Positions 2,499 through 41,824 of a stretch of DNA of 45,353 nt are shown piece after piece. The stretch's first letter is position 1. Every line of letters starts with the position of its first letter. A program made the position numbers and the translations under genes. Location: assembly GCF_006345805.1 (NCBI RefSeq), contig NW_021834958.1, forward strand, positions 1 to 45,353, given 5' to 3'. Source of the DNA: Octopus sinensis (lineage: Eukaryota). The notes beneath the pieces are model-generated. The model worked only from the letters and a program-made list of their open reading frames with translations. It did not search any database and was not told where the DNA came from.

Positions 2499-2730
2499 TG
2501 TGTGTGTGTCGTTGTGAGTGTGTATGTCGCCCAAAACCGCTTGATTCATGGTGTTGGCGTATTTACGCCCACGTAACTTAGCGGTTCGGCAAAAAAGACC
2601 AACTAGATAAATACCAGGCTTCAAACAATGCAATAAATAATGAAGACAATTCAGTCCACTGAAGCAAATTCTTCAAGGTAATGCCCCAGCATGGCCCCAG
2701 TCAATGAAACAACTAAAAGATAAAAGAGAA
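2499..2730 (+). mobile_element. SINE family A, degenerate 3' half
   Basis: cgtaacttagcggttcggcaaaa and cagcatggcc..cagtcaa..gaaac match the intact copies at 11428 and 25291. Confidence 0.75.
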
Positions 2731-3202
2731 AAGATGTAACCAAACAACAGTATATCTTTATGGGCAGATTATGTGTATTATTCCACCTAGCGCAGTCCGC
2801 ATGGCTGTGTATAGGTCCGCGTATTTGGAATAACAACGAAATTTTATGCAGCTGCAGTATTTGAAATCTGAGATATGGTTCATTAATTTGTTGTACTGAA
2901 TTCAATTGCTTGAATTGAAATAGTTTGGATATCATTAAAACTTGGCTCCGTTGATTTCCCTCGATATATACTCCATAACGATTCAGTCTTTAGAGAGGGA
3001 ACCAACTTCTGAACGTGTTATGCTATTCCCTAATTTGCGTTCAGAAATATTACTTATGTCAGGTCTCATGTTTTGCTAAATTTATATTCACGGCTATATA
3101 CGGAAACTGAAATACTAAAAGGAAGTAATTCATAGCTTTCTCGGATGTCCTTTGGGAGAAGAGCGTTATGTAATCTATATTTGACGTGGTTCGATAGAAC
3201 TA

Positions 3203-11589: not shown

Positions 11590-11630
<41 letters not shown>

Positions 11631-11774
11631 ATTATATAGAAGGAGCTTCTACAGGACTAGAACTGTTTCATTCAAGAGAAATCTTCAGGAAGCTAGTTAA
11701 CAAGAATTGTATTGGCATTTATACATTTAGGCAGGTTTAAAGGGGTGTTGGTGGGGGACACACAAAGACACGCA

Positions 11775-12115: not shown

Positions 12116-12326
12116 ATTTCAATATTTGGTACAAAGTCAGTAATTTCGGTGGAGGAATGTAATCGGGTTATATCGACTCCGTTGCTCCACTGGTGCTTAT
12201 CTTGTCAACCCCGAAAGGATGAAAGGCAAAATCGCCCTGGGCGGAATTTGAGCTCAGAACGTGGAGACTGACGAAATATTGCTAAGCATTCTGCCCGGAT
12301 GCTAATGATTCTACCAGCTCGCTCAC
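12116..12326 (-). mobile_element. SINE family B (B1 tail), diverged
   Basis: ccccgaaaggatgaaaggcaaa..ggcggaatttgagctcagaacg..ccagctcgc. Confidence 0.85.
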
Positions 12327-15798: not shown

Positions 15799-15860
15799 GT
15801 GTGTCAATGTGTGTGTATGATTCAGTTAGTATTTCTGCGCGTATATATATATATATATAT

Positions 15861-18024
15861 AGGTAAACAGTAAAAATAATTACAGACATGGACAAGAACA
15901 TGAAACACCACAGAGACGACACAAGAACCACAGGACGGGACATTCGAAGCCCTCAGTCATCAGTCAAGAACCAGATCATCTTAGCAATTTCGGCTGATTA
16001 ATCTTGAGATTGCTCCGATATGGCCAGCCAGCCAAGGGAAATCTAAGCCAAGCGCATTAGATCCCCTGGAAGAAAGCTTCGAATGTATACAACGCGAGGA
16101 CGGAAAACGAACGAAGTATATAAACAAAAATACAGAATACGTGACACCAATAAGAATACAAAAACGTAAAAACAATAACGGTAAAAATAAAAATAAAAAA
16201 TAAACAACAAAACAAAACCAGGACGTGGGACAAGGGTCTTTCGACAGGACGAGTTGAGTATGGGGCTGGCTTGTGAATTGTGCCTAATGGCCACGGGGAG
16301 ACGAACAAATACGTGTTGCTTCTGCGGCTGCTGAAAACGAAAAGAGCGCTCAACGGCGGCTAGCTGTCACGTGAGAACAGAAGACAGGAGAAAGGGACAG
16401 ATGAAAAGAGAGAGAAGGTGGACGAGGGAGGAGAAGAAAGAGACAGATCGAGGGGGCTGGAGGTGAGAGAGATAGAGAAACGTAGAAGGGGGGGGGGAGA
16501 CGGATGGAGAGGGAAAGAAAGGAAGGGGAATAAGGGAGGAGAGAGAGAGAAAAAGAGACAGATTAAGAGTCGTATCAATGCTAGAGAAAAAATATACTTA
16601 TCGTATAAGGTCAATTGTGGATACGTAGCCGCCGATTATATAGGTAAACAGTAAAAATAATTACAGACATGGACAAGAACATGAAACACCACAGAGACGA
16701 CACAAGAACCACAGGACGGGACATTCGAAGCCCTCAGTCATCAGTCAAGAACCAGATCATCTTAGCAATTTCGGCTGATTAATCTTGAGATTGCTCCGAT
16801 ATGGCCAGCCAGCCAAGGGAAATCTAAGCCAAGCGCATTAGATCCCCTGGAAGAAAGCTTCGAATGTATACAACGCGAGGACGGAAAACGACGAAGTATA
16901 TAAACAAAAATACAGAATACGTGACACCAATAAGAATACAAAAACGTAAAAACAATAACGGTAAAAATAAAAATAAAAAATAAACAACAAAACAAAACCA
17001 GGACGTGGGACAAGGGTCTTTCGACAGGACGAGTTGAGTATGGGGCTGGCTTGTGAAGTTGTGCCTAATGGCCACGGGGAGACGAACAAATACGTGTTGC
17101 TTCTGCGGCTGCTGAAAACGAAAAGAGCGCTCAACGGCGGCTAGCTGTCACGTGAGAACAGAAGACAGGAGAAAGGGACAGATGAAAAGAGAGAGAAGGT
17201 GGACGAGGGAGGAGAAGAAAGAGACAGATCGAGGGGGCTGGAGGTGAGAGAGATAGAGAAACGTAGAAGGGGGGGGGAGACGGATGGAGAGGGAAAGAAA
17301 GGAAGGGGAATAAGGGAGGAGAGAGAGAGAGAGAAAAAGAGACAGATTAAGAGTCGTATCAATGCTAGAGAAAAAATATACTTATCGTATAAGGTCAATT
17401 GTGGATACGTAGCCGCCGATTATATAGGTAAACAGTAAAAAAATTACAGACATGGACAAGAACATGAAACACCACAGAGACCGACACAAGAACCACAGGA
17501 CGGGACATTCGAAGCCCTCAGTCATCAGTCAAGAACCAGATCATCTTAGCAATTCGGCTGATAATCTTGAGATTGCTCCGATATGGCCAGCCAGCCAAGG
17601 GAAATCTAAGCCAAGCGCATTAGATCCCCTGGAAGAAAGCTTCGAATGTATACAACGCGAGGACGGAAAACGAACGAAGTATATAAACAAAAATACAGAA
17701 TACGTGACACCAATAAGAATACAAAAACGTAAAAACAATAACGGTAAAAATAAAAATAAAAAATAAACAACAAAACAAAACCAGGACGTGGGACAAGGGT
17801 CTTTCGACAGGACGAGTTGAGTATGGGGCTGGCTAGTGAAGTTGTGCCTAATGGCCACGGGGAGACGAACAAATACGTGTTGCTTCTGCGGCTGCTGAAA
17901 ACGAAAAGAGCGCTCAACGGCGGCTAGCTGTCACGTGAGAACAGAAGACAGGAGAAAGGGACAGATGAAAAGAGAGAGAAGGTGGACGAGGGAGGAGAAG
18001 AAAGAGACAGATCGAGGGGGCTGG

Positions 18025-18028
<4 letters not shown>
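15861..18028. repeat. ~781-bp tandem repeat, 2.8 copies, flanked by (TA)n
   Basis: Unit starts aggtaaacagtaaaa at 15861, 16642 and 17426; the third copy stops at 18028. Confidence 0.95.
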
Positions 18029-20607: not shown

Positions 20608-20650
20608 CCACCTGAAGATTGTCGGAGCAGACATGAAACATTTGTAGTGG
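20608..20650 (+). ncRNA. Minimal type I hammerhead ribozyme fold
   Basis: CCAC CUGAAGA U UGUC-ggagca-GACA U GAAA C-auuu-G UA GUGG. Confidence 0.7.
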
Positions 20651-20840
20651 CGGTTTATTTAATTTATATTAAAATTTTATGTATTGATTAAGTCTTTCCT
20701 TGTTTGGTTTTAAAATAGTGGTTTTGTCTCGAATTATATTATATAATATTTTACTATAAAATTGGATTTAACCCTAAATCTGATCTTTCCCTGTAATTTT
20801 GGATTCATTCCCTAATATTTATTATTATATATATATATAT

Positions 20841-21164
20841 ATGTATGTATGTACAGACACATACACTATATTTGGTTTATATACATATATATATATGTAT
20901 ATATGTATGTATGCACAAGAAGTGGCTGCAAAATCCTTCGCTTTCAGTGTAGAAACGGCTGTGTACCGGCAGACAGCTTCTAAGTTTTCATTGTGTGAAA
21001 TACTTTAGAAAGTGGAGATAATGGGTGGATATAATAGGTAATTTTGTTACTGGGGGAGTTGGCGTTATTGTATATATTTCTATGTATGTATATATGGATA
21101 TACACGTATATATAATTCTACGCATATACAAAGTGATATATACATACATACATACATACATACG

Positions 21165-21202
<38 letters not shown>

Positions 21203-21533
21203 ATATATGTATGTATGTACAGACACATACACTATATTTGGTTTATATACATATATATATATGTATATATGTATGTATGCACAAGAAGTGGCTGCAAAAT
21301 CCTTCGCTTTCAGTGTAGAAACGGCTGTGTACCGGCAGACAGCTTCTAAGTTTTCATTGTGTGAAATACTTTAGAAAGTGGAGATAATGGGTGGATATAA
21401 TAGGTAATTTTGTTACTGGGGGAGTTGGCGTTATTGTATATATTTCTATGTATGTATATATGGATATACACGTATATATAATTCTACGCATATACAAAGT
21501 GATATATACATACATACATACATACATACGTAC
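20841..21533. repeat. Tandem duplication, 366-bp period, (TA)n-bounded
   Basis: 20841-21167 is repeated at 21207-21533, apparently identical. Confidence 0.95.
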
Positions 21534-21543
21534 ATATATATAT

Positions 21544-21576
<33 letters not shown>

Positions 21577-22436
21577 GTATACATACATACACATAGATAC
21601 ATATATTTACTCCCACGCACACCTGCACACACTCTCATATACACATAAGTATATGCATAACTATATGCATAATCGTATCTGAAAACATACGTACATATAA
21701 ACATACATACGAGAGAACATCCATATATAAACGCGTGGGTATATGTATGCATTTGTATATATATATACATATAAATGCATACATACACACACAGATATAT
21801 ATATGTATAAATATATATATATATACATATAAACATATATGTATGTGTATGCGTATATCCATGTACTTACAAACATACATAACGTTCGTGTATAAATAAT
21901 TGTCTAAGACTCTCAAATTAAACGAATTAGCGAATGAATTTAAAAAGAAATCTTCTCTGATTCTCTTCCTTTTATATTTTTAAAACCATTTCAGAGCTAA
22001 TTTAATATAACTTAATTGCAAATTTAATGGTCTTCTGTCTTCCGAATTAGTTCCATAATCTACATTATAGAACATCAGCGTAAAAACGAAAAGTCTCCGC
22101 CATTCCATTAAAATCTCAATTTGTTTATTGATAGAAATAATCAGATTGCTTCTAACTCAATATTTAAATCTGTTGTCCGTTATAATGTGATAACCCTGTG
22201 CGTGTATAGCTTCAGTCTAGTACTGGCCAGTATGCGTTTCAACAATTCGTGTTTAGATTCTTAGGTTTCACGTCCGTGGATAATGTTTTTTTCTCTCCTA
22301 TCTCACAGGCGCTGAAAGCGGTACAAGTCTGCGTCTTCTCAGATATGAATGCTTCAGGGAATGGTATTATAAGATTTAGACATCATGATGCAATCACACA
22401 CATGCGCTTTCACGTTCTAAAAAGTACGTAAACACG

Positions 22437-24103: not shown

Positions 24104-24993
24104 TGGGCAGAAAAAAACAATATGCTGCTGAACGAGGATAAATTTGAGCTAATCCACTTTGGAAAAGAGGATGCCTGAAACTCCCATACTCCCTTCCTTC
24201 AGGTGAAACTCTCGCGGCGTCCAACAACATCAGAGACTTGGGAGTAATTGTGGACAACAACGTAAGCTGGGCCACTCATATAAACACCAAAGTTGACATG
24301 GCCCGCAGAATGTGTTCCTGGATTCTCAGAACTTTCCAGTCGAGAGATATCCACACCATTATCCTTCTCTTCTCCACTTTTGCCCGACCCCACCTTGAAT
24401 ACTGTTGTCCACTGTGGTCTCCCCACACAATACAAGGTATCATAAAAGTTGAAGCACCTCAAAGGGCAATCACAAAAAAGATAGATGGCATGACAGGCCT
24501 CGACTATTGGGGTCGACTAGAAAAGCTAAAACTCTATTCTCTCCAACGTCGTCGTGAGCGCTACATCATCTGCATGATGTGGAAAATATTCCATCAGCAT
24601 TGCCCAAATGATGTTGGCATCACCTTTAAGGTACATCCAAGGCTTGGGCCCCGTGCCATCCGCCCAAAACAAAAATCGCACTCTCATCTCATAACAACAA
24701 TACGGCACAATTATTTCACCTCAATTGGCCCCGCTCTCTTTAACATTACGCCAAAACACATTAAAACAGAAACAGACCCTATAGGGTTCAAGAAGTCTTT
24801 GGACGGATTCCTTCAAGAAATCCCGGATAAACCCCCTACACCCGATATGTCTCTGTAAACAATAACTCTCTACTTGAGTGGGCTATAGTGTCCAAATTCT
24901 GACTTGAAAGACTTCACCAGGTGGTGCTATTAAGTTAGACATGGCCTGGGCCAATAATGGCCGAAACCTATCAAAGTATCAAAGTATCAAAGT
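24104..24993 (+). mobile_element. 5'-truncated CR1-group LINE (RT C-terminus plus 3' UTR)
   Basis: RDLGVIVD..RPHLEYCCPLWSP..RLEKLKLYSLQRRR motifs (ORF 24238-24858), one frameshift near 24175, (TATCAAAG)x3 tail, (TA)n on both sides. Confidence 0.92.
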
Positions 24994-25751: not shown

Positions 25752-25954
25752 GTAGGTCCCGGGTTGAGTCGGGGTTAACTACAGTAAATAAGGTACTCAA
25801 TACATAGCAGAGTAAATTAATTTATTATATAGAAGGAGCTTCTACAGGACTAGAACTGTTTCATTCAAAAGAAATCATCAGGAAGCTAGTTGACAAGAGT
25901 TGTTTTGGCATTTATACATTTAGGCAGGTTTAAAGGGGTGGTGGTGGGGGACAT
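25752..25954 (-). mobile_element. ~200-bp hammerhead-carrying element next to (TA)n
   Basis: About 130 bp shared with 11627-11760. Confidence 0.75.
25837..25887 (-). ncRNA. Type I hammerhead ribozyme fold (second copy)
   Basis: Minus strand: AGCUUC CUGAUGA U UUC-uuuu-GAA U GAAA CAG-uucuaguc-CUG UA GAAGCU. Confidence 0.8.
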
Positions 25955-27049: not shown

Positions 27050-27100
<51 letters not shown>

Positions 27101-27102
<2 letters not shown>

Positions 27103-28055
27103 TTCACCTATCGCGAGGGGTTTTGGAACGTAAGACCCGCGATAGTCGAGGAATTAAAATATATAAAAATTTAAAAAATACAAGAAGGAAAATGCTCACA
27201 GTTTTCTTTCTTTTATTTTTATATATAAATCTTTTATTTTCATTTTTATTTTTACATATTTACTTTTTATATATTTATTTATATAAAAATATTTTTTGCA
27301 TTACAACTCACAACGCGGGGATAATCAAAATTCCTCCTGCTCCATTTTTACGGCGGTGCTCCAGAATGGTCACAGCTCTGAGCTGAAACGACAAGAAAAA
27401 AAACTATATATATATGTTTGTGTGTGTGTATACTTAGATACATACCTGTACATGAATATATTTGAATTTGTATGCGCTTGCCAGCGTATAATACCTGTAA
27501 GTAGCGAGAAACCACACACATTTCTTAGACTACACTGACATGAATCCATATATATATATATATATATATAATATATATATATATATATTATAATATATAT
27601 ATATATATGAATTTCACCTATCGCGAGGGGTTTTGGAACGTAAGACCCGCGATAGTCGAGGAATTAAAATATATAAAAATTTAAAAAATACAAGAAGGAA
27701 AATGCTCACAGTTTTCTTTCTTTTATTTTTATATATAAATCTTTTATTTTCATTTTTATTTTTACATATTTACTTTTTATATATTTATTTATATAAAATA
27801 TTTTTTGCATTACAACTCACAACGCGGGGATAATCAAAATTCCTCCTGCTCCATTTTTACGGCGGTGCTCCAGAATGGTCACAGCTCTGAGCTGAAACGA
27901 CAAAGAAAAAAAACTATATATATATGTTTGTGTGTGTGTATACTTAGATACATACCTGTACATGAATATATTTGAATTTGTATGCGCTTGCCAGCGTATA
28001 ATACCTGTAAGTAGCGAGAAACCACACACATTTCTTAGACTACACTGACATGAAT

Positions 28056-28057
<2 letters not shown>
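27101..28057. repeat. Tandem duplication, 510-bp period, (TA)n-bounded
   Basis: 27101-27547 is repeated at 27611-28057; only homopolymer-length differences were seen. Confidence 0.95.
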
Positions 28058-28120
<63 letters not shown>

Positions 28121-30886: not shown

Positions 30887-30921
<35 letters not shown>

Positions 30922-31040
30922 GTGTGTGAATATATATTTATATGAATCTATATATGTATTATATGTGTGTGTATATATGTACACATACATACATACATAT
31001 ATACAAACACACACACACACACACACACATACACACACAC

Positions 31041-31098
<58 letters not shown>

Positions 31099-31558
31099 TA
31101 TTTTATGTGTATTTATTTACCACAAATATTTTTGTTAGCATGGTGTATTTTTCTCTTTTGTAGGAAGCTTAACTACTTCACCTGGATCGCTAATCCATTA
31201 TTAATCCTCTTTATTTTGATATACACACAGACAGACAGACACACCCTACACACACACACGAACACATGTATATGTGTCTCGCGTACACGATAGCCTCATA
31301 AATTTCTCTCAGATGATTGCTTGTGTGACGCTAGGAATAATAGCTTGGTAAGTTGTTCAGCTTCACATAAACAGAATGCTTTACTCTATTTGTGGTATGT
31401 GAGTTCTATTCTCTCAGATTTATTTCGAAATCAAGAGCTCTCGCATCTCTGGATTACTCATTACAACCATCCATATGCATGCACACACACACACACACAC
31501 AGATACACATACACACACACATACGCACATACACATATGTATATGTATATATACATAT

Positions 31559-31798
31559 AAAAGGTGGAACAAAAGTAGGTTTACAGTTATCACGTAGGCA
31601 CTTTGAATTTCTTTTAAAAACATTTTATTACATTTAAATTCCTATCTTACAAACTCAAAAGAGAGCTCGAAAAAATTAACAAAATTAGCATAGAATAATG
31701 GTTTCACATTTTTTTTTTATAATTAAGATCTAAACGTTTAATATATGAATGCGAAAGAGAGAGTTGAATAACTGTAAACCTACTTTTGGGTCACCCTG
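31559..31798. mobile_element. Mariner-type MITE (copy 1)
   Basis: TIR cores caaaagtaggtttacagttat / ataactgtaaacctacttttg; ends ccctg|TA. Confidence 0.8.
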
Positions 31799-32005
31799 TA
31801 TATGTGCTAAACAAAGTTTACAGTGCACTGTCTTCCCTGTCAATTACTTAATTATATATATATATAATATATATATATATATGGGTGTGTGAATATATAT
31901 TTATATGAATCTATATATGTATTATATGTGTGTGTATATAGTACACATACATACATACATATATACAAACACACACACACACCACACATACATACACACA
32001 CACAC

Positions 32006-32057
<52 letters not shown>

Positions 32058-32517
32058 TATTTTATGTGTATTTATTTACCACAAATATTTTTGTTAGCAT
32101 GGTGTATTTTTCTCTTTTGTAGGAAGCTTAACTACTTCACCTGGATCGCTAATCCATTATTAATCCTCTTTATTTTGATATACACACAGACAGACAGACA
32201 CACCCTACACACACACACGAACACATGTATATGTGTCTCGCGTACACGATAGCCTCATAAATTTCTCTCAGATGATTGCTTGTGTGACGCTAGGAATAAT
32301 AGCTTGGTAAGTTGTTCAGCTTCACATAAACAGAATGCTTTACTCTATTTGTGGTATGTGAGTTCTATTCTCTCAGATTTATTTCGAAATCAAGAGCTCT
32401 CGCATCTCTGGATTACTCATTACAACCATCCATATGCATGCACACACACACACACACACAGATACACATACACACACACATACGCACATACACATATGTA
32501 TATGTATATATACATAT

Positions 32518-32757
32518 AAAAGGTGGAACAAAAGTAGGTTTACAGTTATCACGTAGGCACTTTGAATTTCTTTTAAAAACATTTTATTACATTTAAATTC
32601 CTATCTTACAAACTCAAAAGAGAGCTCGAAAAAATTAACAAAATTAGCATAGAATAATGGTTTCACATTTTTTTTTTATAATTAAGATCTAAACGTTTAA
32701 TATATGAATGCGAAAGAGAGAGTTGAATAACTGTAAACCTACTTTTGGGTCACCCTG
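32518..32757. mobile_element. Mariner-type MITE (copy 2, inside the duplication)
   Basis: Same sequence as 31559-31798. Confidence 0.8.
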
Positions 32758-32806
32758 TATATGTGCTAAACAAAGTTTACAGTGCACTGTCTTCCCTGTC
32801 AATTAC

Positions 32807-32854
<48 letters not shown>

Positions 32855-33561
32855 GAGCATAAAATGAACCATACACATTCGAACCATAGGATATGGTATA
32901 GAAAACTTGTTCAGAGATCCACGCAGTGAGTCGCTGCCTGAAAACAGGTGGCCATCACGCGAACATTTGTAACCCACAGAACTAATCAGAGTTTCCTGTC
33001 GAAGGGTAACGTGATAATTACTCCTAAAATTTAACTTAGAATGTTGTTCTGCTGCGTAGAATCTATTTACAGTAAAGTAGAATAGAATACTGAATGCTGT
33101 AACTGGGCCGAATTCACCTCTCAGAAGTAGTTCTGTTCTATATCTTATATGTTCTCTGTACTTCTTTATCACTCAATTTTTAATGTAGGCTGGACATTAA
33201 ACGCGGTAAAAATATATAATATACTAAATAAAATAAATACACACCAGAAGCGTTCACTCATATTTATTGATTGCATTAAAGATTCCGAAAGTTGTCAGTG
33301 TGGTGCGAAGGCATTTATAAGAGATTCCTGTCACCATTCTTTGAAACTGTCAGTTGAATGGCTGACGGTAATTCAAATTAATACATCTCACAACCAAGAC
33401 ACGTAATTGTCAAATATAGTAGAAACAGCCTCTCTATTTCTACAGCACATCATTTCAGCATTGATTCATGCTTCGTTATCCTACCCATAAGGAATTCAAA
33501 TCATAATGCGTGTCTAATTAATCCACTCTATGTGGATTAAGTAAGCCACTTCACTGTCATA

Positions 33562-33930
33562 TTTGGCCACTTTACTGTTAAAATAAACTAATTCTTCGAG
33601 CATCTAGTGTGTCGAGATTATCTTCATTTAGATAATTATAACTATGTCTAGATAATCCACTCTATTTTGCGCCCCAAAATTCTATTCTACTATGTTTCTA
33701 GATAATCCACCGCAATTCTAGATAAGCTACAGCACTGTTTGGCCACTTTACTGTTAAAATAAGCTAATTCCCCGTGCATCTAGTAGAGCCAGTTCTCAGT
33801 ATGTCGAGATTATCTTCATTTAGATAATTGTAACTATGTCTAGATAACCCACTCTATTTTGCGCCCCTATATTCCATTCTACTATGTTTCTAGATAATCC
33901 ACCGCAATTCTAGATAAGCTACAGCACTGT
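33562..33930. repeat. Diverged ~180-190 bp tandem duplication with tctagataa sub-repeats
   Basis: ttggccacttt..gctacagcactgt occurs twice, with substitutions and an indel. Confidence 0.9.
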
Positions 33931-34364
33931 GTTGATGTAATCAATTCCATTCATGATCTAGAGAAGTCACACCGCTGTGTCTCGATAAACAAGTTAACTG
34001 TGTGACAGGATAATCCCTTTTAATTGTGATGAGATAACCCACTCCAGCACCACAATTTCCTCTTTTGAGCCCCGTTTTGGCACTCTCCACCCAAGTCTTA
34101 GGCCTCCTGTCTATTGTAAAAATGATTATTACTAGTGTGAGATCGGAGAGCTCGTCTGTTTCACACGGGTGGATGAAGCAGACAAGCTTTCCATTGGACC
34201 TCTGTGAATATCAGTTTAAACATTACTATGCACTCTCCATAACTGTGCATTGAGTCCTCATTTATCACTGAGTCGTTTCACATTTATACTGTATATATAT
34301 GTATTATATTTCGAGACGGTCATTTTTTGTAGCCAAACAAACACACGCACTATATATCTATATA

Positions 34365-34792
34365 TCTATATGTATAAAGCTGAAGTTGTGTGTGTGTGTG
34401 ACAGGTTTGGTAACCTTCAACTAACACTATTTACTCCGAGATCCTGCGGCGCAAGTTGACCAAAATTGAGGGTATGATAGAAGAAGGCTTGCTCTTCATT
34501 CCGTAGAAGAAAAAATTCAAATCGGACCATGTTAACACCAAAAATTATTTATGTAGAAAAGGTGCTTTTTTTTCTCCATAATGTTAATAGAAGGAATATT
34601 AACCAACAATATCAACAATTGAAGTCGCCTTTACACATTTGCAGCACATTCAGAGCAAACTCGAGCATCGCCACACTATACTTTTATTCATAGATTAAAA
34701 CTATGTCAAAAATGTGTTAACGCGACATCAAAGTCTGCCGTTTTAAGCGCAACTAAAAAACAAACCCGAGCAACACCGGGCTATACTGCTAG
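34365..34792 (+). mobile_element. Non-autonomous Helitron-like element
   Basis: A|TCtatatgtataaa start, hairpin cccgagcaacaccggg, end CTAG|T. Confidence 0.8.
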
Positions 34793-35228
34793 TATATATA
34801 TATTCACTTGATTGACCGGTTTCACTTTTTTAGAAAAAGATTGTCAAAAGTAAAATGTAAAGCTTTGTATGAACTTTGTTGTGTTAAGTACTGGTTGTCA
34901 CAAAAATATTACAATACATATAAACATTCTTTGATAATAATAAGAAAATGTTAAAAACAGAAAATATTTGAGAAAGTATTTAACAAAAAGTATTAAGATT
35001 TTAATAAAAATCATGTTGGTTTGGTAGTGTATATATACATAAAAGGAGGTATATTTAAGAGTTTACAAAGGATTGGAGATGAACCAACCTGTTATCTTAT
35101 GCATTCTGTGTGTATGTATACTCGAAATGAGGAGTGGATAGGCAACCGACAACTGAGGAAAGGTCGTTCTTTATGTTTTTGTCCTGTTTTCCATTTGTTT
35201 CTTTCATTTTCTTTTTTTTTTTGCGTAT

Positions 35229-35551
35229 TCTACTTTAGCCTCGGGTCGACCAAAGCCTTGTGAGTGGATTTGGTAGACGGAAACTGAAAGAAACACATCG
35301 TATATATTATAATATATATATATGTATGTGTGTGTATATGTTTGTGTGTCTGTATTTGTCACCCCAACATCGATTGACAACCGATGCTGGTGTGTTTACG
35401 GCGTCGGAACTTAGCGGTTCGGCAAAAGAGACGGATAGAATAAGTACTAGGCTTACAAAGAATAAGTCCTGGGTTCGATTTGCTCGACTAAAGGCGGTTG
35501 CTCCAGCATGGCCACAGTCAAATAACTGAAACAAATAAAAGAATAAAAGAG
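35229..35551 (+). mobile_element. SINE family A, 5'-truncated
   Basis: tagcctcgggtcgaccaaagccttgtgagtgg through the aataaaagag tail. Confidence 0.88.
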
Positions 35552-35725
35552 TATATATATATATATATAATGATAAATTTCAGAGCGAGTTATATATATA
35601 TATATATTGTTATATTTCGGAATGGTCATTTTGCCAGTTTAGCCAATAAAAACACACGCACTATATATTTGGTGTTACTTTGCTTCAGTGTTATTTATTT
35701 TTTACATTAATCTTAATCTTATTTC

Positions 35726-35770
35726 GGCCAGAGTTCTTTCGTCACACTCCTGTGACCGCATCAGTGGTCC
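35726..35770 (-). ncRNA. Hammerhead-like variant (CUGAUGC core)
   Basis: Minus strand: GGACCA CUGAUGC G GUCAC-aggagu-GUGAC GAAA G-aa-C UC UGGCC; A9 is replaced by C. Confidence 0.45.
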
Positions 35771-36245
35771 TTTGTTTTCTTCTTACTTATTTCTGTCTCT
35801 CCTTACTAACCGTCAGCCATTTTGTATTTCTATTGTATGTCTTCATTTGCGCATGCTTATATCTTATATTTAAACGTATATATATATATATACATACATA
35901 CATACGCCCTGATAACTCCACCAATAGATCGCTACCACCTGGTACTTCATTCACCGACTCCGATAATGAAAAAAAAAAAAAACAGAACGGGAAATAATTT
36001 AAGCGCGGAACAAACGCGACACCGTTCTAACCATTTAACAAATTCATCACCTCAAGACTAATATCAAATTAAGTCTACAGCGACGAAGTATATACGAGCA
36101 GTACACGCAATCTAATTATCTTCTTAATTACCATAGAATAATTATCTACTTGACATTCTATTCAACATTTACCAAAGAGGAATTGTACAGACTAAAACCA
36201 ACGAAAACCACAACCGTACAACTCCATTGACATCGCAAATATATT

Positions 36246-37967: not shown

Positions 37968-38045
<78 letters not shown>

Positions 38046-38046
<1 letters not shown>

Positions 38047-38362
38047 CAGGCGATCCATTTGCTGTCAACACCCGTTAAAAGGAGGGCTGGGCATGCCGTG
38101 GTTGATGATGCGCAGACACGCGCTGAGACTGCGACATCTCAGGCTCTTCGTAGACGACGGTGAACAGGTGTGGTCGCCGTTTGTGAGGCACGCTTTCCCG
38201 CAGCTCGTCTCCATGACCGAACTGCAGTCGTGGTTCAAAAAGAGGCCGAGGAAGGGCGAATGGCACCGCGAGTGCCGCGTTGCTCTCGAGTTGCAACTCC
38301 GCCGTCCCGGGTCTACCTTGAGCGACTCCATCACAACCCAAGCATTCTATAGGGGATTAGTG
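38046..38362 (+). mobile_element. Tx1/L1-group LINE ORF2 internal fragment
   Basis: GC-rich island translating RRSICCQHPLKGGLGMPWL..LRLRHL..W..F, the P-x-x-GGLG motif found downstream of RT; follows (TCTG)n(TCTA)n. Confidence 0.7.
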
Positions 38363-38436
38363 TCGGCCTTGGCACATTTCCTGTGCCCTTATGTTTAAAA
38401 AGAGGGAGATAAGCACCTCCACCCAGCTAAGCCAAC

Positions 38437-38475
38437 CAGACTGATGACGAGGAAATACTCAGAAACTAGTCTCTG
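38437..38475 (+). ncRNA. Minimal type I hammerhead ribozyme fold with palindromic stem III
   Basis: CAGA CUGAUGA C GAG-gaaaua-CUC A GAAA CUAG UC UCUG; ACUAGU palindrome, GUC triplet. Confidence 0.7.
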
Positions 38476-38669
38476 TATGTATGTATGTATGTGTGTATGT
38501 ATGTGTGTGTGTATGTATGTGTGTGTGTGTATGTATGTATGTATGTATGTATGTATGTATGTGTGTATGTATGTGTGTATGTATGTATGTATGTATGGAT
38601 GTAAGCATGTATGTGTGTATGTATGCATGTATGTATATATGTATGTATGCATGTATGTATGTATGTATG

Positions 38670-38703
<34 letters not shown>

Positions 38704-39373
38704 TGTATGTATGTATGTATGTATGTACGTACGTATGTGTGTGTATGTATGTATGTATGTATATATGTATGTATATATGTATGTATGTATGTATGGGTGT
38801 ATGTATGTATGTATGTATGTATGTATGTATGTGTGTATGTATGTGTGTATGTATGTGTGTATGTATGTATGTAAGCATGTATGTATGTATGTATGTATGT
38901 ATGTGTGTATGTATATATGTATGTATATATGTATGTATGTATGTATGTGTGTATGTATGTATGTATGTATGTATGTATGTATGTGTGTGGTATGTATGTA
39001 TGTATGTATGTATGTATGTGTATGTATGTATGTATGTATGTATGTATGTATGCATGTATGTATGCATGTATGTATGCATGTATGTATGCATGTATGTATG
39101 TATGTATGTATGTGTGTATGTGTGTATGTATGTATGTATGTATTTATGTGTGTATGTATGTATGTATGTATGTATGTATGTATGATATATGTATGTATGT
39201 ATGTATGTGTGTATGTATGTATGTATGTGTGTATGTATGCATGTATGTATGTATGTATGTATTTATGTGTGTATGTATGTGTGTGTGTATGTATGTATGT
39301 ATGTATGTATGTATGTATTATGTATGTATTATGGGTGTATGTATGGGTGTATGTATGTATGTATATATGTATG

Positions 39374-39404
<31 letters not shown>

Positions 39405-39922
39405 TATGGGTGTATGTATGTGTGTATGTATGTATGTATATATGTATGTATGTATGTATATATGTATGTATGTATATATGTATGTATGTACGTGTGTATG
39501 TATGTGTGTATGTATTTATGTATGTAATTATGTATGTATGTATTATGGGTGTATGTATGGGTGTATGTATGTATGTATGTATGTATGTATGTGTGTATGT
39601 ATGTGTGTATGTATGTGTGTATGTATGTATGTAAGCATGTATGTATGTATGTATGTATGTATATATGTATGTATATATGTATGTATGTATGTATGTATGT
39701 GTGTATGTATGTATGTATGTATGTATGTGTGTATGTGTGTATGTACGTGTGTATGTATGTATGTATGTATGTATGTATGTATGTATGTATGCATGCATGT
39801 ATGTATATATGTATGTATGTATGTATGTATGTAGTATATATGTATGTATGTATATATGTATGCATGTATGTATGTGTGTATGTATGTATGTATGTGTGTA
39901 TGTATGTATGTATGTATGTATG

Positions 39923-39956
<34 letters not shown>

Positions 39957-40674
39957 TGTATGTATTTATGTGTGTATGTATGCGTGTGTGTATGTATGTA
40001 TGTATGTATGTATATATGTATGTATGTATGTATATATGTATGTATGTATGTATGTGTGTATGTATGTATGTGTGTATGTATGCATGTATGTATGTATGTA
40101 TGTATTTATGTGTGTATGTATGTGTGTGTATGTATGTATGTATGTATGTATGTATGTATTTATGTGTGTATGTATGTGTGTGTGTATGTGTGTATGTATG
40201 TATGTATGTATGTATGTATGTATGTATGTATGTGTGTGTATGTATGTATGTATGTATGTATGTATGTATGTATGTATGCATGTATGTGTGTATGTATGTA
40301 TGTATATATGTATGTATATATGTATGTATGCATGTATGTATGCATGTATGTATATATGCATGTATGTATGTATGTATGTATGTATGTATGTATGTACGTA
40401 CGTATGTATGTATGTATGTATGTATGTATATATGTATGTATGTATGTGTGTATGTATGTATGTATGTATGTATGTATGTGTGTATGTATGTGTGTATGTA
40501 TGTGTGTATGTATGTATGTAAGCATGTATGTATGTATGTTTGTATGTATGTATTTGTGTATGTATATATGTATGTATATATATATGTATGTGTGTATGTA
40601 TGTGTGTATGTATTTATGTATGTATATATGTATGTATGTATGTGTGTATGTATGTATGTGTGTATGTATGTATG

Positions 40675-40708
<34 letters not shown>

Positions 40709-40927
40709 TGTATGTACGTGTGTATGTATGTACGTGTGTATGTATTTATGTATGTATGTATTATGTATGTATGTATGTATGTACGTATGTATATATGTGT
40801 GTATGTATGTATGTGTGTATGTATGTATGTGTGTATGTATGTATGTGTGTATGTATGTATGTATGTATGTATGTATGTATGTATGTATGTATGTGTGTAT
40901 GTATGTGTGTATGTATGTGTGTGTGTA

Positions 40928-40958
<31 letters not shown>

Positions 40959-41568
40959 ATGTATGTATGTATGTATGTATGTATGTGTGTATGTATGTAT
41001 ATATGTATGTATATATGTATGTATGTATGTGTGTATGTATGTATGTGTGTATGTTGTATGTATGTATGTATGTATATATGTATGTACGTATGTATGTACG
41101 TATGTATGTATGTATGTGTGTATGTATGTATGTATGTGTGTGTATGTGTGTGTGTATGTATGTATGTGTGTGTGTGTATGTATGTATGTATGTATGTATG
41201 TATGTATGTATGTATGTGTGTATGTGTGTATGTGTGTATGTATGTGTGTGTGTATGTATGTGTGTGTGTATGTATGTATGTGTGTATGTATGTATGTATT
41301 TATGTATGTATGTATGTATATATGTATGTATGTATGTGTGTATGTATGTATGTATGTATGTATGTGTGTATGTATGTATGTATGTATGTATGTATGTATG
41401 TATGTATGTATGTGTGTGTGTATGTATGTGTGTATGTATGTATGTGTGTATGTATGTATGTATGTGTGTATGTATGTATGTATGTATATATGTATGTATG
41501 TGTGTATGTATGTATGTATGTATGTATGTATGGATGGATGGATGGATGGATGGATGTATGGATGGATA
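38474..41568. repeat. ~3.1-kb imperfect (TATG)n array ending in (TGGA)n
   Basis: Direct reading; source of the 1065-aa and other YIHT/MYVC ORFs. Confidence 0.97.
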
Positions 41569-41824
41569 GGTATCAACCTCGCTTTGCAACAACTGCGTGG
41601 ATAAGATACTTCCACTCTACTCTGGGTCGACCGTTCCTTACAAATTAATTTGTTAGGCGCCAACTTTGTGGAATTCCTTTCGCCAAAAAGTTGCCGGCTT
41701 TGTGCTAAAAGCTGGAAACAATTAATATAGAATATATAGGTGCGCTGATGATAAGAAGCATTGCACCGTTTAGTGCTCGGCCTGTGTATTAATCAGGAAA
41801 GGATATATATATATATATATATAT

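Follow-up and report, generated by a model that had tools for sequence, protein, structure and literature searches.

Small hammerhead ribozymes that cleave as dimers were reportedly described by Lunse and colleagues in 2017. For the minimal hammerheads of metazoan Penelope-like elements it was described that single dispersed motifs are the rule, that several invertebrates carry a small palindromic helix III and that the minimal monomer does not cleave while dimers cleave weakly (passages of Cervera and De la Pena, 2014, PMC4209133). A lizard Penelope hammerhead required the protein of the element; insertion in vitro did not depend on cleavage, and reverse transcription begins internally (passages of PMC11167929). 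Moreover, Penelope-like clades show a bias towards microsatellites (parts of PMC8557442), and ACAY and TC repeats are targeted by LINEs (parts of PMC3812793). In Octopus vulgaris, Penelope-like elements account for 6.83% and fall into 190 families (part of the supplement of PMC13282606). A literature search on titles and the openings of abstracts, with most subscription papers outside its scope, yielded no paper on a cephalopod hammerhead family.

A type I hammerhead motif at the start of a TATG array

The window, i.e., the whole analysed stretch of 45,353 nucleotides, contains at 38437-38475 on the forward strand a motif that can be drawn as a type I hammerhead, with a full core, a helix I of 4 bp and a palindromic helix III. 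The 5' strand of helix I, CAGA (38437-38440, from motif reading and descriptor), is followed by the first part of the catalytic core, CUGAUGA (38441-38447), by helix II (38448-38461), by a segment at 38462-38471 which comprises GAAA (38462-38465), the palindrome ACUAGU as helix III (38465-38470) and the predicted cut after C38471, and by the 3' strand of helix I, UCUG (38472-38475), which is in register with the array. CUGANGA, GAAA and UH are all present and helices I-III follow each other in the type I order. Thereby the complete core (CUGAUGA/GAAA/GUC) and the palindromic ACUAGU in place of a stable stem III, both claimed in the preliminary description of this DNA, were borne out; its statement that the 3' arm UCUG runs straight into the satellite agrees with Tandem Repeats Finder, by which the array begins at 38474, 3 bases past the cut.

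A feature absent from that description is the composition of helix II, which has only three Watson-Crick pairs and a six-base loop and in which C38448 faces A38461 at the base beside the core. If helix II is taken as four positions, position 10.1-11.1 is a C.A; otherwise the helix starts with a G-C pair and one extra base lies on each side. Matches mispaired at 10.1-11.1 were discarded by Perreault et al. (passages of PMC3088659), and an active axolotl motif starts its helix II with a U.U (passages of PMC7229834). A U.U is also found at the helix II base of the three other hammerhead motifs of the window.

A chance origin of the motif is rejected. Four hammerhead motifs of the window match a descriptor that allows Watson-Crick pairs only, compared to none in 600 block-wise dinucleotide shuffles, although the shuffles do yield core words (14.5 CUGANGA per shuffle compared to 18 in the real window), and 38437-38475 is the only one of the four with a perfectly palindromic helix III. 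The three others lie 12, 92 and 169 bases before TA tracts. Two of them form a second hammerhead family at 25818-25953 and 11625-11760 (minus strand), with cores at 25881 and 11688; these copies are 95% alike over 136 bases, have a 6-bp helix I and a longer helix III with a CUAG loop, and both end towards TA tracts within an abundant short repeat, the 25881 copy carrying about 80 more tail bases. They look like Penelope-type ends. The remaining type I motif (about 20608-20650, forward strand, core at 20612, 169 bases before its TA tract) has helices I and II of 4 bp each.

The Rfam hammerhead models gave no match at the locus up to E 10 and none at the second family either, and no hammerhead was among the 150 of 292 matches listed for the whole window, which were mostly low-complexity microRNA models. 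This null result is uninformative, since the same models also miss well-formed look-alikes on four metagenome contigs (L002, L003, L006 and L007). These came from a metagenome scan with a pattern that ended at the cleavage triplet and left out the 3' arm of helix I. It gave eight matches in seven loci (L001-L007), and in 7/8 the arm TCTGG closing helix I follows, even though it lies outside the search pattern. The match in L004 was dismissed as a chance match within a prokaryotic gene. With L001 and L005 near-identical and L002, L003 and L006 related, the seven supporting matches amount to about three independent lineages. None of the look-alikes belongs to the family of 38437-38475 or has a blastn match to the window at E 1e-4, and none of the eight has an array behind the hammerhead; L007 has a single TATG after its 3' arm. 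The small hammerheads of L002, L003 and L007 recur at repeat spacings of about 1021, 727 and 936 bases, respectively, like tandem or circular retrozyme units. A hammerhead-bearing repeat of 428 bases, 97% alike, is shared by L001 (about 2175-2602) and L005 (1-428), and in L001 it interrupts a LINE-like reading frame, which in L005 is unbroken. Neither the viral contigs nor the prokaryote genomes scanned contained a match to the pattern.

Folded in its context, helix II has a pair probability of 0.98-0.99 and helix I of 0.007-0.021, helix I hardly forming because the core pairs with the cleavage triplet. The self-duplex of ACUAGU has a predicted energy of -4.8 kcal/mol and two strands pair through this palindrome; the best two-strand fold forms the palindrome, yet it also draws in G12/A13 and the 3' arm. 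A second copy of the hammerhead is absent from the 45-kb window, and for the lone window copy poor or no cleavage is predicted. Since folding programs ignore the non-canonical pairs of the hammerhead core, such folds are weak evidence on activity.

The array, the insert and the repeated family

The array behind the hammerhead is a degenerate (TATG)n repeat of 3.1 kb on the forward strand (38474-41564; 778.5 units and 87% matches in Tandem Repeats Finder), which ends in GGAT units. The downstream cleavage product had been expected to be almost pure (UAUG)n RNA; this is overstated, as TATG units make up 75% of 38476-41530 and the longest pure run has 13 units. Exact internal repeats of 101 and 92 bases occur at offsets of 760 and 887, compared to 20-33 bases in 30 unit-shuffled controls, which break local clustering and thereby overstate the contrast. 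The rare variant AAGC recurs at 38603, 38873, 39633 and 40520. Such recurring variants and exact repeats are the mark of DNA slippage and block duplication. The window contains ten other TATG-rich blocks, and none of them directly follows a hammerhead. Past the array, 70 bases behind its end, lies a near-perfect palindrome of 22 bases (41636-41657). Elsewhere in the window near-identical tandem duplications (98-99%) are present at 15856-18028 (about 780 bases), 20815-21595 (about 366 bases), 27050-28116 (about 505 bases) and 30889-32841 (about 960 bases), which are either recent duplications or assembly artefacts.

Upstream, the hammerhead forms the end of an insert of 422 bases (38048-38469) composed of a LINE fragment, a flank and the hammerhead itself. 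To its left lies the compound microsatellite (TCTG)15 (TCTA)4 TCTC (37968-38047, forward strand). The insert is flanked by TCTC as direct repeat on both sides, with a left copy at 38044-38047 and a right copy at 38470-38473 that overlaps the cleavage site; a target duplication or microhomology could account for them. The four-base register passes unbroken from TCTG, TCTA and TCTC over the insert to TCTC and TGTA, each unit being one change away from the next, and excision of the insert on paper leaves a single continuous four-base repeat running from TCTG to TCTA to TCTC to TGTA. The TCTC on both sides together with the unbroken register points to an insertion into an older repeat. However, a four-base match of TCTC in a TC-rich repeat can be due to chance, and the right copy belongs to the ribozyme itself.

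The LINE part (38048-38362, forward strand) is an internal ORF2 fragment from the region between RVT_1 and zf-RVT. It is cut at both ends, occurs in very high copy and shares 64-71% identity with RVT_1 plus zf-RVT proteins, one of them from Argonauta hians, its limits being set by tblastn. This relative suggests a cephalopod as source of the window, whose sequence is animal DNA rich in repeats. From its domain layout we take the LINE part to be of the L1/Tx1 type. None of the 108 low-repeat ORFs of at least 70 aa in the window gave a Pfam match to a reverse transcriptase or a GIY-YIG domain; Pfam missed the LINE fragment as well, so short remnants can escape this search. A frame of 236 aa at 24148-24858 (forward strand), likewise without Pfam match, presumably resembles the C-terminal portion of the reverse transcriptase protein of a LINE. 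Between the LINE fragment and the motif lies the upstream flank of the hammerhead family (38363-38436, forward strand), which is repeated elsewhere and whose left limit was placed at the end of the LINE homology. A hammerhead belonging to the LINE family was considered and rejected: contig depth drops more than tenfold past 38362, and a LINE contig continues differently there.

Contigs of four public sequencing runs (X1, X3, X4 and X17; three organisms by their codes; 24 runs are listed) were aligned to 38047-38479. A single-copy motif would have spoken against the preliminary description; instead the motif has deep contig coverage in all four runs. The summed depth over 38437-38466 is 32,000-36,000 in X1, 2,700-3,200 in X3 and 35,000-46,000 in X4, compared to 40-91, 5-11 and 45-74 for single long contigs of these runs, which suggests a hammerhead family of roughly hundreds of copies, the summed depth itself being no copy number. 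For the LINE part the summed depth is near a million in X1, and for the flank (38377-38436) it is 5,600-89,000 in that run, with peaks of 68,000-89,000 which are separate from the ribozyme peak. The join of flank and ribozyme as present in the window is rare, with a depth of 145 across 38434 in X1. Loose ends before 38436 were seen in 37, 41, 50 and 5 contigs of the four runs; they resemble the flank plus about six bases and thus indicate a private deletion in the window copy just before helix I. The 24 loose ends listed, of 835, include none behind 38475.

Furthermore, six of the 15 joints listed (35 exist) connect 38475 or 38479 to 38431-38434 on the opposite strand. These fold-back joints were found in 19 contigs of X1, 10 of X3 and 22 of X4, a total of 51, with sides of 23-42 bases, and in all of them the reverse complement of the upstream flank, not the array, comes after the hammerhead. 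This is a long distal helix I or fold-back arm in those family copies. For the family of 38392-38479 the fold-back was seen in X1, X3 and X4 over 23-42 bases or more. The fold-back contigs have a share of about 3-4% in the depth over the ribozyme, and the remaining copies may continue with the same arm or with another sequence. Among the joints listed no fold-back is from X17, although an absent joint in contigs proves nothing. At its far end the array lacks the distal arm that follows the ribozyme in those family copies; the window's best match to this arm is an 11-mer at 12192. In 23 of the 51 fold-back contigs the alignment runs through 38479, the last base aligned, and the first TATG may therefore belong to the element.

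The 40 substitutions listed, of 85 and each reaching at least about 20% in one run or another, include none within 38435-38479, for which reason the C.A of helix II is probably the state of the family and not a decay of the window copy. On the assumption that the substitution table is ordered by share, as it seems to be, the ribozyme is well conserved, a result towards which short contigs at 80% likeness are biased. Contigs over the motif at a depth of about 114 were also present in X17, which we guess to be an RNA run; strand, locus and ends are not carried by the contigs. No contig listed spans the whole stretch 38047-38479, and the fraction of sampled words present in the best run is 0.48. 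The family motifs are absent from one supplement each of PMC8557442 and PMC13282606; repeat libraries may contain the family.

Origin of the junction between ribozyme and array

The reading that we favour and consider rather probable is that the 3' end of a truncated Penelope-like or retrozyme-type element, together with the L1/Tx1 piece, was inserted into an older microsatellite that was later expanded, and that the window copy is poorly active. It builds on these observations: the motif is repeated, a LINE fragment precedes it, TCTC lies on either side of the insert, the register is continuous and the array contains duplications. From them we infer the enzyme involved, the order of events and the inactivity. 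The RNA of the element would be copied by a reverse transcriptase, probably that of a Penelope element working in trans, starting just 3' of the ribozyme core, where UCUCUG(UAUG) of the RNA matches the target repeat. A template switch to a LINE RNA, or a later deletion joining two neighbours, might have brought the LINE piece in. The right-hand repeat would then have expanded to 3 kb at the DNA level by ordinary slippage and block duplication. The ribozyme of intact family copies may work as a dimer via the ACUAGU palindrome, with the distal arm extending helix I. As neither a Penelope reading frame nor a tandem unit is linked to the locus, the mobilising element stays putative; an empty insertion site was not seen.

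The array might instead descend from the element itself, which would have carried a TCTG-TATG proto-microsatellite 3' of helix I that grew by DNA slippage after insertion and without any ribozyme chemistry. The array indeed starts in register with the 3' arm of the ribozyme, the first TATG lies within the alignment of 23 of the 51 fold-back contigs, the unrelated look-alike L007 has one TATG after its arm, and seeding of repeats by the 3' ends of retrotransposons is published (parts of PMC6050309 and PMC3812793). However, an array that opened inside the element should have the distal arm at its far end, where it is absent, the register extends into the microsatellite left of the insert, and 0/8 look-alikes of other organisms have an array, which makes this origin rather unlikely. 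A later accident, i.e., a deletion, recombination or assembly join that set a decayed element against an unrelated TATG array by the likeness of TCTG and TATG, would suit a patchwork locus with a LINE piece cut at both ends and a flank with a private deletion. It would also suit a window of which arrays with a period of up to 12 fill 19.7%, and contigs of which none listed spans the stretch and which in the best run contain only 0.48 of the sampled words. Yet an array start within 5 bases downstream is found for 0.8% of the non-array positions of the window, and a further coincidence would be needed for TCTC and the register to match on either side of the insert; we regard such an accident as quite unlikely.

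The idea put forward as speculation in the preliminary description, namely that the ribozyme has a role in seeding or expanding the array, is not supported: the register of the microsatellite crosses the insert unbroken, the far end of the array shows no distal arm, and some family copies continue into a fold-back arm and not into an array. In its explicit form, cleavage by an active ribozyme would leave a (UAUG)n transcript with an exposed 5' end, which would seed or lengthen the array either directly or once reverse transcribed. The intact core, in which no listed substitution falls, and the contigs of X17 over the motif at a depth of about 114 would fit such activity. Against it stand the missing partner copy in the window, the lost distal arm and a helix I that is predicted to be almost unformed, the behaviour of minimal hammerheads, which as monomers did not cleave and as dimers did so weakly (passages of PMC4209133), and an array that is degenerate and contains block duplications; moreover, that X17 is RNA is a guess, and its contigs give no strand, locus or ends. 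This makes array growth by ribozyme products highly improbable.

A further reading concerns the family as a whole. It may be a cephalopod family in which the ribozyme tips a fold-back of 23-42 bp or more and in which the arm UCUCUG-UAUG mimics TCTN/TATG, so that the repeat would prime reverse transcription behind the ribozyme and would restore helix I after insertion. Such an element would home to and nucleate TATG arrays, and it would render the transcripts of these arrays self-cleaving. We consider this improbable. If it were true, it would explain how a Penelope-type element selects four-base microsatellites by pairing of RNA with DNA, and in which way satellite content could be shaped by an element with a ribozyme.

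Comparison with known hammerheads and microsatellite-targeting elements

On the favoured reading, 38437-38475 represents one more truncated end of a hammerhead-bearing retroelement in a genome of a kind in which Penelope-like elements are abundant, and both Penelope-type hammerheads and their microsatellite bias are already published. Of possible interest to specialists are the apparent C.A in helix II of the family and its long fold-back arm.

The Naiad, Chlamys and Neptune Penelope-like elements, which target microsatellites, likewise end directly in a simple repeat; their targets are (TA)n, (CA)n and (C)n, whereas TCTN/TATG is found here and targeting is putative (parts of PMC8557442). The elements Waldo (ACAY), Kibi (TC), Koshi and Dong also end in simple repeats, and ACAY corresponds to the opposite strand of the TATG/TGTG found here (parts of PMC3812793). 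In the passages of PMC8557442 and PMC3812793 considered here there is no mention of a hammerhead family with TCTN/TATG as its target. Similarly, in the seeding of AATAG repeats by CR1-L3 in squamates the 3' end of a retroelement adjoins an expanded repeat, with an enrichment that is genome-wide, in contrast to the one locus here and to family copies of which some have no array (passages of PMC6050309).

With the minimal hammerheads of metazoan Penelope-like elements the motif shares the type I topology and the 4-bp helix I, an unpaired base on the 5' side of helix II with a G-C pair after it, a palindromic 15.2-16.2 region that needs a dimer, and the occurrence mostly as single dispersed copies of truncated elements. 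It differs in a helix II of 3 bp instead of 6-8 bp, in an extra A before GAAA, in having no linked Penelope reading frame or pair of pseudo-LTRs and in the long distal helix I arm of the family copies, loop 1 being poorly defined in the minimal form (passages of PMC4209133). The assignment to the dimer-dependent minimal form of Penelope type made in the preliminary description is supported by the type I order, the short palindromic helix III and the multi-copy state, whereas a linked Penelope reading frame was not found. Without such a frame and with a single copy at the locus, the motif is placed no more closely than in the class of hammerheads carried by Penelope-like elements and animal retrozymes.

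The canonical type I hammerheads of non-LTR retrozymes (passages of Cervera and de la Pena, 2020, PMC7229834, and of the preprint by Li, Clavereau and Pollet, 2026, 10.64898/2026.07.22.740005) have in common with it a helix II region of 14 bases (four positions and a six-base loop), a helix III of two pairs with a palindromic loop, the occurrence of solo monomers, a mismatch at the base of helix II as in HHR_Amex2 of the axolotl and, in the family copies, a helix I that extends beyond an internal loop. Unlike in these retrozymes, there is no tandem unit here, the hammerhead being single in 45 kb, and in the window copy the distal arm and a part of the loop 1 region are missing. By its helix II region of 14 bases and the distal arm, the family is closer to this canonical form than to the minimal one as these are described in passages of PMC4209133, PMC7229834 and PMC6155905.
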